Assembly: GCA_041651415.1 (NCBI GenBank)
Contig: JBAZJH010000001.1
Location: 11,374-75,373 of the forward strand
Reading direction: 5' to 3'
DNA length: 64,000 bases
From: Minisyncoccota bacterium
Lineage (GTDB): Bacteria; Patescibacteriota; Minisyncoccia; UBA6257; XYB1-36-10
In this document: positions 3,243 through 22,334 of the stretch, one piece after another
Position numbering within the stretch: the stretch's first letter is position 1
How the letters are laid out: the number at the start of each line of letters is the position of its first letter
Notes under the pieces: generated by a model
Database searches by the model: none
What the model was told of the DNA's origin: nothing
Seen by the model: the letters and a program-made list of their open reading frames with translations, nothing else
Position numbers and translations under genes: made by a program

Positions 3243-3358
3243 AAGAATAACAGTTAAAAAAAACAGGGCTAATCACCATTCCGCCAAAGGCGGACAGGCA
3301 TTTTTTTAGCTGCTATTCTTCATAAATAATTTTTTGAGAGGTGAAAAGTTATGATAAA
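3243..3358 (+). repeat. Repeat family A, copy 1: terminator-like hairpin with conserved loop, plus downstream GAGG..GTGATAA box
   Basis: Stem gaagaataacag/ctgctattcttc. Loop aaaacagggctaatcaccattccgccaaaggcggacaggca. 3' box gagaggtgaaaagttatgataaag. Confidence 0.6.
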
Positions 3359-3547
3359 GTAACCCTTCGACTCGTCTCGCTCGCTCAGGAAATAAAATAA
3401 TAAGGCAATCTTTTAAATTATTGAACTTGCTTTAGGGGTAAATTTTCCTTTTTTAAAAAGGATTGCAAACCTCGATTAAGATAAAAAAATTGACGGATTG
3501 GTTTTTGTTTGATAAAAATAGAAAAGAACTTTTAGAGGAGGAAAAAA

Positions 3548-3856
3548 ATGAGAATTTGGGTAACAGAACATGCGATAGAGAGATACGAGAAATGGCATAA
3601 TTTTTCTTTTGGGTTTTTTCCGAAGAACCCTAAAAAGGAAATTTTTGACTTGTTTAATGTAGCAAAACCGGTGAGGACAAAAAAAGTTTTTCCGCCAACG
3701 AGAAAAATTCCGGAAGGAGAAGAATGTAATCCGGTGAAAGTTTATAAAAGCGGAGAGTGGACTTTTTTTGTCACTTGGTCGGAAAAGAAAAAAAGAATGG
3801 TGATAATGACTATCGTTAAAGGGAAGATTTTTGGAAGAAAAAAAAGAAAGAGGTGA
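3548..3856 (+). CDS. Small basic hypothetical protein (possibly DUF4258-like)
   Basis: Strong SD gaggagg 6 nt upstream. N-terminus MRIWVTEHAIERYEKW resembles the conserved start of DUF4258 proteins. Ends TGA. Weak call. Confidence 0.3.
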   Translation: MRIWVTEHAIERYEKWHNFSFGFFPKNPKKEIFDLFNVAKPVRTKKVFPPTRKIPEGEECNPVKVYKSGEWTFFVTWSEKKKRMVIMTIVKGKIFGRKKRKR

Positions 3857-3963
3857 AAACAGTTTTTAGTATTAGTTATCCGGTTTTAAAATGGAATTTA
3901 TTGCGGGGCAAAAGCTCCGCTTTTTTATATAAAAACTTAAATGTTTTATTAAACCCAGCGGGG

Positions 3964-3993
3964 TTGACATAGGCAGGAGCTTTCTTATATAAT
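3964..3993 (+). promoter_or_regulatory. Candidate sigma70-type rRNA promoter (TTGACA-N18-TATAAT)
   Basis: ttgacataggcaggagctttcttatataat lies about 160 nt upstream of the 16S 5' end. Confidence 0.5.
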
Positions 3994-5174
3994 TCCCTTT
4001 ACGAACTTTGATAACTTAATAATACCAAAGAACTCTTAAGAAGACAGAGAGTTCTTTTAATCAAACCATATATTTAAAGAGAGTTTTTTTGTTGTTCCAG
4101 GTAAATTTTATATTAGGAAATAAATTAGGAATTTTGTTCTTAATTTGTTTCTTATTCTGAGGATTTGATCCTGGTCCAGGATGAACGCTGGCGGCGTGGA
4201 TAAGGCATGCAAGTCGAACGATTCTTTTTACTGATTTAATAGCAATATTAAAAAAGTTTTTAGAATAGTGGCGAACGAGTTAGTAACACCTTGGTTACAT
4301 ACCTTGAAGACAGGAATAATTCCGAGAAATCGGAACTAATACCTGATAATCTCCTTTCGCAAGATTGGAGTAAAGGAGCAATCCGCTTCAAGATTGGCCT
4401 AGGCCCGATCAGCTTGTTGGTGAGGTAAAAGCTCACCAAGGCTATGACCGGTAGGGGGGGTGAGAGCCCGAACCCCAACGACGGCACTGAGACACGGGCC
4501 GTACTCCTACGGGAGGCAGCAGTCGAGAATATTCCACAATGGGCGAAAGCCTGATGGAGCGACGCCGCGTGCAGGAAGAAGGCCTTCGGGTTGTAAACTG
4601 CGGTAGCTAGGGAGAAACTTCGGTGATAGTACCTAGCGGAAAGAGGTTGGTAACTACGTGCCAGCACCCGCGGTAATACGTAGACCTCGAGCGTTATCCG
4701 GATTTATTGGGCGTAAAGTGTGGGTAGGGGGCTTGGTAAGTCAGAAGTAAAATCAGGGGGCTTAACCTTCTGGCCGCTTTTGATACTGCTAGGCTTTGAG
4801 GACGTTAGGGGCTTGCAGAACGCACGGTGTAGGGGTAACATCCGTTGATATCGTGCGGAATACCAAAGGCGAAGGCAGCAAGCTGGGGCGTTCCTGACCC
4901 TGAGCCACGAAAGCGTGGGGAGCAAAAAGGATTAGATACCCTTGTAGTCCACGCCCTAAACGATGCCTGCTAGCTGTTTCGAGTATCGACCCTCGGAGTG
5001 GCGAAGCTAACGCGTTAAGCAGGCCGCCTGGGAAGTACGAGCGCAAGCTTAAAACTCAAAGGAATAGACGGGGACTCGCACAAGCGGTGGAGCATGAGGT
5101 TTAATTCGATGGTAAGCGAGGCACCTCACCAGGGTTTGAAATTCTAATGGAAAGCCGATGGAAACATTGGCCCT

Positions 5175-5276
5175 CCAGCCCCAGTTTCACTAAGAAGGCT
5201 AAAAAATCTTTTAGCTTTTATAGAGTGAAAAAATGCGCTTAATTTTATTTAGCGTAAATAGCGAAACTGGGGCTGG
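5175..5276 (+). repeat. 16S intervening element 1 (V6 helix tip), ~100 nt with a 17-nt terminal inverted repeat
   Basis: ccagccccagtttcact ... agcgaaactggggctgg, inserted between the conserved blocks ggaaacattggccctc and actgttagaacgggtgctgcacgg. Confidence 0.65.
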
Positions 5277-5389
5277 ACTGTTAGAACGGGTGCTGCACGG
5301 TTGTCGTCAGCTCGTGCCTTGAGGTGTTCCCTTAAGTGGGGTAACGAGCGCAACCCCTGTCGTCTGTTATAAGTGTCAGACGAGACTGC

Positions 5390-5496
5390 CCAGCCCCAAT
5401 TTCACTAGAAAATATTAAAATTATTTTATTTTGATATTTTTTGAGAAGTTATCGCCAGAAATTTTCTTTGGCGTTGTTAGCGAAATTGGGGCTGGG
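5390..5496 (+). repeat. 16S intervening element 2 (hairpin corresponding to E. coli ~1160-1175)
   Basis: ccagccccaatttcact ... agcgaaattggggctgg, inserted between gactgcc and ggaggaaggtgggg. Confidence 0.65.
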
Positions 5497-5760
5497 AGGA
5501 AGGTGGGGATGACGTCAAATCAGCGTGGCCCTCTGATACCCTGGGCGACACTCATGCTACAATGGCCGTTATAAAGGGTTGCTAAGCCGCGAGGCGGAGC
5601 TAATCTCAAAAAAGCGGCCTCAGTTCGGATTGGAGTCTGCAACTCGACTCCATGAAGCCGGAATCGCTAGTAATCGCGCATCAGCCATGGCGCGGTGAAT
5701 ACGTTCTCGAGTCCTGTACTCACTGCCCGTCACGTCAAGGGAGCCGGAAGCACCTGAAGA

Positions 5761-5860
5761 CCAGCCCCAATTTCACTATAAAAATATTAAATTTTCATTT
5801 AATTTTTTTAAAAAGTTAGCGTCGGAAATTTTTCGATGTTGTCAGCGAAATTGGGGCTGG
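5761..5860 (+). repeat. 16S intervening element 3 (helix 44 tip)
   Basis: ccagccccaatttcact ... agcgaaattggggctgg, inserted between cacctgaagac and ttaagggtgagttcggtgac. Confidence 0.65.
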
Positions 5861-20556: not shown

Positions 20557-20696
20557 GAGCTACCGGCAAATCTTCGAAAAAAGGGCTAATCGCCAACCTA
20601 CCTATCGGCAGGCAGGAATTTTCTCAGAATTGCCGGTAGCTCTTGTTTTTTGTTCTGAATCTTAACTTTTTAGAGGGGGTGAAGGTGATAATGAGG
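20557..20696 (+). repeat. Repeat family A, copy 5
   Basis: gagctaccggcaa..aagggctaatcgccaacctacctatcggcaggcagg..ttgccggtagctc, then ttgttttttg, then gagggggtgaaggtgataatgagg. Confidence 0.6.
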
Positions 20697-20827
20697 TAGT
20701 TTTCTGCGAAAACTTATGTTTTTGAAGAGAAAACATGGTTAAAATAGGAGGTGTTTTTTGAATGTTTTTTAATGGTTAAAAAATAAGTATTTTAAAAAAA
20801 CCGCTTATTTAAGCGGTTTTTTGGCTG

Positions 20828-20856
20828 TTGACATTTTTGTAGAATGGGATTATAAT
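20828..20856 (+). promoter_or_regulatory. Consensus sigma70 promoter (TTGACA-N17-TATAAT) in the gene-free region
   Basis: ttgacatttttgtagaatgggattataat, immediately after a hairpin terminator (ccgcttatttaagcgg tttttt, 20801-20822). Confidence 0.55.
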
Positions 20857-21361
20857 TTACGGCGTAGAACATTGAAAGAAGTAAAAACGAATACCCTCTG
20901 GCTTTCAGCTAGAGGCAAAAAGTGAAAGGAGGATGGTTATGATTCGATGTGGTCCCCGGCGGAAGGAGACTTCCGCAAAGAAGAAAATTTGAATCTCGAT
21001 CGTCGCCGCCTAAGTGAGGTGCGAAGCCTCACTGGCAAAGAAAGGAGGGATTGTCATGAACAGGAAAATGACAAAATTTATCCCGCTTGAGGGATTCGGC
21101 TAGTTGCTGAGTCCTTCAAAAAATCATTTCGCCAGACTATTCTGGCGGTTATCCTGCTTCATCCGAAGCGCGCGCCTAGTTCGCCGAGATCTTTGGGTCT
21201 TGGGCTAGGTAGAATATGCGGCGGGCGACATCGGGTTGCCTGCCGACCGATCTTTTTTGAAGTTTTTTATCTCTTACCCCTTCCTCAAAAATCGTGGGAG
21301 ATATCTTCTTCTCCCAAACCGTCGGGGAGGAAAAGAGTTTACTCTTTTCCTCCCCAAATCG

Positions 21362-21394
21362 AAATCCCAACTAAAAAATGGGATTTTTTTATTT
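21362..21394 (+). terminator. Rho-independent terminator
   Basis: aaatcccaactaaaaaatgggattttttt, preceded by a 14-bp GC hairpin ggggaggaaaagag..ctcttttcctcccc (21324-21355). Confidence 0.6.
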
Positions 21395-21423
21395 TGATAA
21401 AAATATGAGAAAGAAAATGTTTT

Positions 21424-21457
21424 TGTCGATTATTGTCTGATCGGACAATAATCGACA
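21424..21457. promoter_or_regulatory. 34-bp palindrome P, copy 1 (candidate operator)
   Basis: tgtcgattattgtctgatcggacaataatcgaca. A second copy at 48913-48946 has C at the one central difference. Confidence 0.5.
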
Positions 21458-21670
21458 AAAAGGAAAATGGGAAAAAAGAAAAAAATTATAATAAAGTTAA
21501 TTATTAGATTTAATAAATCCCGCCATAGGCGGGGTGAAACTTTAAAATTATATGGCTATAAGGCCGTGGAGTTTCATTTTAAACAGAATTTAGAGAAATA
21601 TAAAAAAATGTGGCTCTTCGACAAGTTCAGAGACTAATTTTTTAAAATAAGACAAAGTGGAAAAATGGAG

Positions 21671-21699
21671 TTGACAGTTAAAAAGGAGAGGAGTATAAA
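21671..21699 (+). promoter_or_regulatory. Second sigma70-like promoter (TTGACA-N17-TATAAA) in the gene-free region
   Basis: ttgacagttaaaaaggagaggagtataaa. A hairpin plus U-tract terminator lies at ~22125-22170 (cccccgagcgcttttagcgtttgggggttttt). Confidence 0.4.
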
Positions 21700-22231
21700 G
21701 AAAAAACAGCACCTTGAATATCTTAATCTGACGCTGGTTTTTCTTTTTCTCTTCTAATCGCGATAGAAGCTGAAAAAGGAGAGCCGATTCTAAAAAAGGG
21801 AGGACACTGCGTATGATTGTTTGTATTCGTAGTATTCGTAGTTCGGTGTTTTCGTCGACGCGGTAAACCGACCATAATTGACCTTCTTTCTTTCGGTCTG
21901 CGAGATAGCTCGCAGAAGGAGAAAAATTATAATTATGCGGACAAGAAGCGGATGGCCTTAGCTTTTATAGTTGAAATAAAAAGAGGCCGTGGCTACAGGC
22001 CAGAGTAAAAAAACGAAGCCGAAGTGTCAGATGGAAAAGGAAAATTCCGTACGAGGAAGAAAAAGATAAAAAGAGGCAATGCAAAGCCTAAAAATTCAAA
22101 TAACTTTTTCTTCCCGAAAATAAAAACCATCACCCCCGAGCGCTTTTAGCGTTTGGGGGTTTTTAATTTTGAAATTTAAGGATTTTATTCTATATTGAAA
22201 AGAAGAGGATATAAATAATTAGTGAGTAAGA

Positions 22232-22334
22232 GAATTTCCGGTAAATCTTCGAAAAAAGGGCTAATCGCCAAAATTTTCTCAGAATTACCGGAAATTCTTC
22301 TAACTTTTTAAAAGTGAGGGAGAGTGATAAGATT
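22232..22334 (+). repeat. Repeat family A, copy 6, ending 9 nt before the leuS start codon
   Basis: gaatttccggtaa..aaaaaagggctaatcgccaaaattttctcagaa..ttaccggaaattc, then ttctaactttttaaa, then agtgagggagagtgataagattg. Confidence 0.6.

Follow-up and report, generated by a model that had tools for sequence, protein, structure and literature searches.

TIGR stem-loop arrays have variable, consistently palindromic stems, and their loops hold short conserved motifs including CCA as well as two variable 8-12 nucleotide (nt) spacers between box C/D motifs, with a Nop-domain Tas gene adjacent (PMC12045711). The REP/BIME elements (REPINs) of proteobacteria are short intergenic hairpin repeats found in clusters behind genes, alone or as composite arrays; they differ between close relatives and can stabilise or terminate the upstream transcript. 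The Correia elements of Neisseria and the BOX and RUP elements of Streptococcus pneumoniae are modular, mosaic intergenic repeats with long RNA hairpins and promoter-like and terminator-like parts; they bring no transposase with them, and a given orthologous site may have or lack a copy. The genomes of candidate-phyla bacteria are small, dense and thought to be repeat-poor, and their transcription and translation signals are little known. Here we describe a family of hairpin repeats from a Minisyncoccota bacterium (assembly GCA_041651415.1, contig JBAZJH010000001.1, positions 11,374 to 75,373; this 64-kb stretch is referred to below as the window). The apical loop of seven long + strand hairpins, at six loci of the window, bears GGGCTAATC(A/G)CCA. 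REPs conserve the stem (5' GTAG) and vary the loop, whereas in the window family the loop is invariant and the outer stem is free; to our knowledge, such a loop-fixed, stem-free pattern has not been described for bacterial intergenic repeats. Judging from the sequence comparisons below, we consider it fairly likely, though far from settled, that the family is a lineage-restricted, modular, recombining intergenic repeat, probably a terminator-plus-restart cassette. The repeat family is new and well supported, but it is no new principle of regulation. In kind it sits with the REP/BIME, Correia and BOX elements; what is new is the inverted conservation together with the terminator-like and -10-like modular design.

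The unit consists of a long hairpin (H1), whose tip contains GGGCUAAUC(A/G)CCA and sometimes an inner hairpin, followed by a T-rich spacer, a purine box and often a second, small hairpin (H2). Units follow closely on the stop codon of a gene with the same orientation, either alone or as tandem arrays. No sequence similarity was seen to Correia, BOX or RUP elements. Correia elements possess conserved terminal inverted repeats and a TA duplication, whereas no duplication was demonstrated for the window family, and BOX elements follow a boxA/B/C order, whereas the core here is a hairpin tip with a purine, -10-like box. Miniature inverted-repeat transposable elements (MITEs) have conserved terminal inverted repeats and target-site duplications; the ends of the window family are not conserved, and the alignment at the leuS site was ambiguous. 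Integron attC sites carry conserved R''/R' cores at the stem base and a nearby intI gene, but the stem bases here were variable and no integrase was found among the open reading frames (ORFs) scanned. With intrinsic (Rho-independent) terminators H1 shares its position past stop codons and, in several copies, a T run behind the hairpin, and the H2 hairpins, with their A and T tracts, have the appearance of ordinary small terminators. Intrinsic terminators have a G+C-rich stem, a loop of 3-8 nt and a direct U tract; in H1 the stem is A/U-rich and 20-29 bp long, and the loop spans 14-40 nt that include a conserved sequence.

It was found that GGGCTAATCRCCA occurred seven times in the window, on the + strand only (3266, 14102, 14171, 17812, 20318, 20583 and 22258), against a mean of 0.06 in dinucleotide shuffles, none of which reached seven. 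A relaxed scan, which allowed up to three mismatches to the loop motif and required a stem, returned the same seven copies and no further one, and three shuffled windows together gave one match. A covariance model recovered exactly the same seven copies, all with E <= 2e-8, and gave no credible match in the 22.3-64 kb part of the window. These results bore out an earlier note on this DNA, which had described seven hairpins at six + strand loci with a common loop motif. The 12-18 bp that it gave for the stems fell short of the lengths measured, however, and its statement that stems differ wholly between copies held for the outer stems only. Four subfamilies were distinguished, namely type A (the hairpin at 14081), type B (14150), type C (20557 and 22232) and type D (3243 and 20299), with the hairpin at 17792 as a simple variant outside them. 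Types A, B and C have a homologous inner stem in common, in which an A.A mismatch and a 2x2 UC/UC internal loop are kept as non-pairs in all three, and free variation is confined to their outer stems. RNAfold gave -27 to -39 kcal/mol with z of -5 to -9 for six of the seven H1 hairpins, and z of -1.7 for the short hairpin at 14081 as cut for folding. The parts of the units, all on the + strand, are as follows.

3236-3327, +: H1 of type D, loop CAGGGCTAATCACCA with inner hairpin CCGCCAAAGGCGG (z -7.8, model E 1.8e-8), in the divergent spacer between rpmE (- strand) and a 102-amino-acid ORF ahead of the 16S gene
3336-3362, +: variant purine box GAGAGGTGAAAAGTTATGATAAAGTAA, which fails RGTGATWR and has the variant form GAGAGGTGAAAAGTTATGATAAAG
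14080-14138, +: H1 of type A, ~28 nt past the glyS stop, its 3' outer arm shortened by the next unit (model E 4.6e-9)
14142-14232, +: H1 of type B with inner hairpin CCGCCAAAGGCGG (z -5.1, covariance-model match)
14243-14268, +: purine box GGGAGAGGAAGGGTGATAATAATG, matching RGTGATWR, with a -10-like GATAAT (TTTAAA-16-GATAAT)
17783-17854, +: H1 of the simple type, a perfect 20-22 bp stem ~50 nt past the permease stop (z -9.2, model E 1e-11)
17884-17905, +: purine box AGGTGAGGAGAGGTGATTGATG, matching RGTGATWR
17907-17933, +: H2, a small terminator-like hairpin, AGCTCCGAC-TTTAT-GTCGGAGCT plus TTTT, upstream of the metG promoter-like site (17958-17986)
20289-20379, +: H1 of type D with inner hairpin, 18 nt past the tatD stop (z -8.4, covariance-model match)
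20374-20392, +: remnant 3' arm of type C, TTTTTCAGAATTGTCGG, without a matching 5' arm; it matches L166 5337-5399 in a relative
20409-20434, +: purine box GTGAGGAGATAGAGTGATAATAAGG, matching RGTGATWR
20435-20458, +: H2, AATTGCC-TAGTC-GGCAATT plus a T tract
20554-20645, +: H1 of type C, inner hairpin CCTACCTATCGGCAGG and then TTGTTTTTTG (z -5.7, covariance-model match)
20672-20699, +: purine box AGAGGGGGTGAAGGTGATAATGAGGTAG, matching RGTGATWR
22229-22300, +: H1 of type C that lacks the inner hairpin; it separates leuS from a promoter-like site (22169-22196) also conserved in the relative L200 (z -6.3, model match)
22314-22338, +: purine box GTGAGGGAGAGTGATAAGATTGTAA, matching RGTGATWR, with TG-n-TAAGAT ending 11 nt before the leuS ATG (22343)

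The orphan type-C arm at 20374-20392 is evidence of a putative nested insertion or replacement. The H2 at 20435 has a stem that shows covariation among relatives (GTC/GAC) and a loop similar to the H1 tip; as 20435-20453, this hairpin satisfied an intrinsic-terminator consensus scan. A U-rich tract, which had been ascribed to every hairpin, was clear behind about four of the seven and not behind the remainder. The hairpins had also been placed upstream of + strand genes. The strand was right, but the position is better described as 18-50 nt past the stop codon of a gene that precedes them in the same orientation (glyS, the AI-2E-type permease and tatD). An eighth unit was found just upstream of the window in the same strain (L202), 28 nt past the stop of the L25 gene, so that eight copies lie within 28.5 kb ending at window position 22,300, and none in the next ~50 kb.

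MAFFT and RNAalifold misaligned the subfamilies when given raw hairpins, and the alignment was therefore rebuilt in pairing register. It contained 19 distinct copies from four related genomes, with 28-nt arms and a 13-nt core, and the MAFFT output was gapless. Standard pairs filled 82.5% of the cells compared with 58.4% in shuffles, the covariation score was 0.659 compared with 0.194, none of 500 shuffles reached these values, and 25 of the 28 pairs had changed on both sides, although in such a register-built alignment the subfamilies are maybe not homologous column by column and part of the 'covariation' would then reflect different palindromes. When the partner arm was slid by 1-3 columns as a control, 39-60% of the cells were paired. 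Columns 6-16 were paired in essentially all copies, with up to five pair types per column. Compensatory double changes were present in the type-C outer stems, which are homologous (CCGGC/GCCGG, CCGGT/ACCGG, GCGAC/GTCGC and CCGAC/GTCGG), and the alignment of more copies thus supported the compensatory substitutions that the earlier note had expected. Because pairing is strongly kept across 19 distinct copies of four related genomes, the H1 hairpin is constrained. The suggested selection on RNA structure was therefore upheld as far as pairing is concerned, but not the leader or attenuator role attached to it. Transition-type mismatches on the + strand were G.U in 11 cases and A.C in 4, which leans, though weakly, to a role in the + strand RNA.

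Scans for the exact pattern in 185,579 species genomes and a metagenome collection yielded mostly single chance matches without a hairpin. Besides the window genome, true copies, in which a long hairpin presents the motif in its loop, were found only in STF2_126 (loci L002, L035, L046 and L068), in contigs of the Ga0265297 metagenome (L090, L093 and L166) and in L179. STF2_126, labelled Paceibacterota, was the one metagenome-assembled genome of the genome collection with the family. STF2_126, the Ga0265297 genome and the window genome shared 80-85% DNA identity where comparable, and Liptonbacteria was the label on the closest metG homologues among those bearing a name. A phage origin was rejected, since all five viral-contig matches were chance matches and none had a hairpin. 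In the relatives, tandem arrays of 2-3 units were observed, in the order H1, box, optional small hairpins, next H1. Five related loci (L035, L093, L068, L179 and the L090-4961 arrays) lie between convergent genes and therefore have no downstream gene to control; at all informative tandem-gene loci the orientation of the unit was that of the genes. Truncated or mosaic copies occurred in L179 and L093. The family is thus found in few closely related genomes, where it is clustered and turns over fast, with recombination between copies and with pairing kept. An Rfam search gave no family at the gathering score, T-box included, and chance-level matches only (E up to 5 over 3000-23000), in agreement with the earlier view that no named riboswitch or T-box is involved. 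A literature search on the motif string and on repeats or RNA motifs in these phyla returned nothing relevant besides TIGR-Tas.

Comparison of orthologous sites revealed presence and absence as well as exchange of parts. The relative L200 (DNA about 84% identical, metG 89% identical at the amino acid level) showed full synteny with window 6786-27922 in blocks of 81-89% nucleotide identity, yet neither the covariance model nor the synteny comparison revealed a unit at any of the five loci covered. Its glyS-M16 and permease-metG spacers were 166 and 148 nt long, and its tatD-leuS spacer measured 75 nt compared with 2.1 kb in the window. The syntenic, more distant L211 (metG 66%) likewise gave no covariance-model match at the five loci covered. 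L046 had an intact type-C unit upstream of a murein-hydrolase gene, of which the window strain (L202) had only the 3' half, beside other inserted hairpins. In an orthologous convergent spacer of STF2_126 (L035) and Ga0265297 (L093), three-unit arrays aligned unit by unit, with flanks and boxes well conserved and hairpin types swapped; in unit 2 the outer stem AGAACAA/TTGTTCT was present in both, and the inner stem was of type A in one and of type D in the other. Two loops of the STF2_126 array were decayed (GAGCTAATTACCA and GGGATTAATCAATA), and their stems were still paired. In addition, 62 nt of the type-A copy (window 14077-14138) were 100% identical to a copy in the non-syntenic Ga0265297 locus L090. 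The family therefore occurs in multiple copies, is present or absent at orthologous sites, includes decayed and mosaic copies and was intergenic only. It had been called the opposite of REP/MITE repeats; as an argument against a selfish repeat this was not supported, since its narrow spread, its clustering and its mosaic, truncated and decayed copies all match a proliferating repeat family.

Insertion into the loops of pre-existing terminators was considered as the source of the variable outer stems and rejected, because the empty leuS site in L200 has no hairpin; it was also countered by the identical 62-nt copy, outer stem included, at a non-syntenic locus. Swapping of tips inside an existing hairpin was nevertheless seen between L093 and L035.

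Two further features of these regions were observed. The HD-domain gene at window 14049-15255, with its two hairpins and its own terminator, was missing from the syntenic L200 and L211, and it was among the few genes here with a Shine-Dalgarno (SD)-like sequence (AGGAGAG) before the ATG; for these reasons it looks like an acquired cassette. The tatD-leuS region contained ~1.5 kb (20700-22160) of non-coding, hairpin-rich DNA with strong terminators, a perfect TTGACA-17-TATAAT promoter at 20828-20856 and only tiny ORFs. This stretch was missing from L200, and L211 had a similarly built, non-alignable spacer; it may hold unrecognised RNA genes or micro-proteins.

The purine box conforming to RGTGATWR, with a purine tract before it, was found 22-42 nt behind five of the seven hairpins (0.24 expected). 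The downstream box that had been described for all copies was therefore present in these five; the hairpin at 3243 had the variant form, and that at 14081 had none, being followed directly by the hairpin at 14150. Purine boxes were also present upstream of several hairpins. The distance from box to gene start was 20-160 nt. The end of the box, (G)TGATAAT or TGATAAG, resembles an extended -10 element. The 3' end of the 16S rRNA (window 5880-5960) reads ...GCGTGGAACAATTAAAT and ends in ...GTCGTAACAAGGCACGTGTAGCGGAAGCTGTGCGTGGAACAATTAAAT, with no GATCACCTCCTT-like tail behind it and no CCUCC anti-SD sequence. In place of an SD, most genes had a -10-like hexamer (in many cases TGnTATAAT) that precedes the ATG by 6-11 nt, an arrangement that points to largely leaderless or near-leaderless mRNAs in this genome; canonical TTGACA-17/18-TATAAT promoters were found too, for example ahead of the 16S gene. 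With CCUCC missing from the 16S tail and SD sequences from most genes, the box is not the SD that the earlier note had proposed; it looks like a promoter element. At leuS, a promoter-like TTGAAA-16-TATATT was conserved in the window and L200; the window had H1 and the box between this site and the ATG, and L200 had a box-like GAGATAAAGG at the place of the window box. The distance of the leuS box to the ATG was that of the -10 boxes at other SD-less genes here.

Other roles of box and loop were tried and dropped. Several boxes hold a 3-5 codon frame (GTG ATA ATA AGG TAA and variants, with TAA or TAG), but its GTG was TTA or GTA in the L090 copies, and there is no anti-SD. For pairing between loop and box (AUCRCC:GGUGAU), the duplexes were weak (-6 to -12 kcal/mol), and no covariation was seen where the loop was variant. 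The loop as a mimic or complement of the 16S tail or of other RNAs was not supported either, since no complement of the motif beyond chance was found in the window and the tail is not canonical. The 16S gene itself was 1786 nt long compared with a 1533-position model and had three insertions (window 5175-5276, 5390-5495 and 5761-5860), each bracketed by CCAGCCCCAATTTCAC... and ...GCGAAATTGGGGCTGG, which are mutually complementary; they are repeated hairpin-like intervening sequences.

These observations are consistent with the following scheme. H1 (and H2) on the transcript would stop or insulate read-through from the upstream gene, or would protect its 3' end, and the box would restart transcription for the next gene. 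Insertions would thereby be tolerable in a genome of mostly SD-less genes with a -10 box right before the ATG. The invariant loop would be the feature needed for spread, either through recognition by some factor or as homology that seeds the exchange of tips, and the stem would be the part kept locally. Such a stop and restart would explain the placement past stop codons, the co-orientation with genes, the tolerance between tandem genes and the stems that outlast decayed loops. This lineage has three linked oddities, namely a 16S rRNA without anti-SD tail, -10 boxes directly before ATG codons and spacers filled with recombining hairpin and box modules. If the modules do terminate and restart transcription, they would show how a repeat can spread through the operons of a reduced genome without killing downstream genes, and would supply ready-made markers for gene boundaries and for strain typing in uncultured organisms.

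Several points weigh against the terminator-plus-restart cassette. We infer termination, restart and even transcription of the units from sequence. Loops this long and stems this rich in A and U are not what efficient intrinsic terminators have, and a clear U tract follows only about four of the seven hairpins. The box has no good -35, and in several units H2 lies directly behind it, so that a transcript started there would be tiny. The way in which the pairing alignment was built, discussed above, may lower the share of true covariation. No mobilising enzyme (transposase, reverse transcriptase, integrase or Nop domain) was present among 30 window ORFs compared with Pfam, which had housekeeping functions. 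No target duplication was demonstrated; the comparison with the empty leuS site showed purine-box-like sequences on both sides of H1 (AGTGAGTAAGAGAA and AGTGAGGGAGAGTGA), but its alignment was ambiguous. Finally, the L200 absence at permease-metG may be a loss and not a gain in the window lineage. In the permease-metG spacer of L211 there is a purine box, then a long inverted repeat whose interior differs, and a further box with a small hairpin behind it, and because of this analogous arrangement the hairpin-plus-box architecture, on present comparisons, predates the GGGCTAATC-loop family.

At L202 6020-6110 and 6230-6385 and at L211 9760-9870, further long inverted repeats, whose interiors are unrelated, were seen in comparable positions with the same purine boxes at their flanks, and the architecture thus extends beyond the GGGCTAATC-loop family. 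Contigs of sample ERZ27247363 (L201 1-557 and L210 from 10001 on, compared with window 17996-18343) matched the window at ~99% identity on one flank of metG, and they diverged within or after metG (metG 75% and 67% identical in amino acids). Either co-occurring strains recombined with breakpoints at metG, or the assembly is chimeric.

A bolder version, to which we give a rather low probability, holds that a dedicated factor docks on the invariant 13-nt tip, which is borne by a hairpin with a conserved UC/UC internal loop and echoed by the H2 pentaloop, and that the family is a self-propagating transcription-punctuation system of this candidate-phyla lineage. Such a factor might be a protein that binds RNA and governs termination or the stability of 3' ends, or it might be an enzyme acting on single-stranded DNA by which hairpin tips are copied to other sites. 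If the loop is such a protein docking site, it would represent a new RNA or single-strand DNA recognition system.

It is also conceivable, although we regard it as unlikely, that H1 is a protein-binding RNA recognised through its tip, UC/UC loop and A.A mismatch as part of a post-transcriptional regulon, or an independent small RNA. The 13-nt loop is invariant across subfamilies with different stems, the same non-pairs are kept in types A, B and C, the + strand mismatches lean to G.U, and -10-like sequences were found upstream of several hairpins. The H1 tip can form a mini-hairpin, GGC-UAAUC-GCC, which is echoed by the H2 loops UAAUC and UAGUC, with the same A-to-G variant as in the H1 tip. 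However, the ACC variant of the loop breaks the closing pair of the mini-hairpin and is uncompensated, orthologous loops decay and stems persist, close syntenic relatives have no copies, no candidate protein was found, and the flanking genes (L25, glyS, permease, tatD, leuS and convergent pairs) have no common function.

An explanation at the DNA level appeared less probable still. Here the hairpin loop would be nicked by an HUH-type enzyme (RAYT/IS200-like or Rep-like) or by another recombinase encoded elsewhere, and any RNA effect would be incidental. By analogy only, a conserved loop on a free stem is the classic design of HUH Rep origins and of hairpins recognised by single-strand transposases. 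The family is proliferating, clustered and mosaic, its hairpin tips are exchanged, and its unique outer stems are still perfectly paired, as self-templated repair of a palindrome would give. Unlike Rep origins, the copies are many and dispersed, the loop is unrelated to known nick sites, and no Rep or transposase gene was nearby; nor was a RAYT gene, to which REPs are tied, or another gene of this kind present among the 30 window ORFs scanned (the sequence viewed being ~90 kb of a contig of at least 298 kb). The orientation follows transcription at each informative locus, although the direction of replication is inseparable from it here, and the + strand G.U excess fits RNA better, weakly.

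The cis-regulatory reading of the earlier note, in which the hairpins are leaders or attenuators of leuS, metG, the HD protein and other genes and the box is an SD or antiterminator partner, was largely refuted by the comparative data and is now very doubtful. What recommends it is that the hairpin and box at 22232 stand between the conserved promoter-like site and the leuS ATG, that three of the six loci adjoin aminoacyl-tRNA synthetase genes, and that the loop end (G/A)CCA resembles a tRNA 3' end. But no copy precedes the same genes in L200 or L211, or hisS in the window, and the arrays of relatives lie between convergent genes. At metG the gene's own -10 box, 9 nt before the ATG, lies downstream of the element. 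As an antiterminator partner the box performed no better than shuffled boxes, its duplexes with the 5' arm being worth -1 to -12 kcal/mol compared with -22 to -32 kcal/mol for the hairpin, and the variant copies showed no covariation between loop and box. The missing anti-SD and the negative T-box and Rfam searches point the same way. Lastly, a TIGR-Tas-like array of stem-loop guide RNAs (PMC12045711), which the tandem units, variable palindromic stems, candidate-phyla host, CCA at the loop end and UG at the start of type-B loops might call to mind, is extremely improbable, since the loops are constant and hold no variable 8-12 nt spacers, the units are dispersed among housekeeping genes, and no Nop-domain protein was present among the window ORFs scanned.

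Other repeats were noticed in the window. A second, unrelated multi-hairpin repeat of ~130 nt (ATGAAACTTCACGGCC...AGATTTAATAAA) was present at 7748-7877, 35126-35255 and 21506-21580 (- strand), partially at 49025-49059, and at L090 5094-5226, with 74-88% identity between copies; one copy lay directly after a tRNA gene, and Rfam gave no match. A 36-nt perfect palindrome, TTTGTCGATTATTGTCYGATCGGACAATAATCGACA, occurred at 21422-21457 and 48911-48946 (97% identical), with a shorter relative in L211. A 63-nt direct repeat (92% identical) flanked a tRNA cluster at 28042-28104 and 28999-29061. The motif CCTTCGACAAGCTCAGGA was found in coding and non-coding DNA, at 10542-10571, 19901-19930 (in tatD) and 35360-35389 (in grpE), with a variant at 3364-3389 behind the box of the 3243 unit. 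Finally, a single ORF at 62123-63577 on the - strand combined LexA DNA-binding, S24 peptidase and N6/N4 DNA methyltransferase domains.

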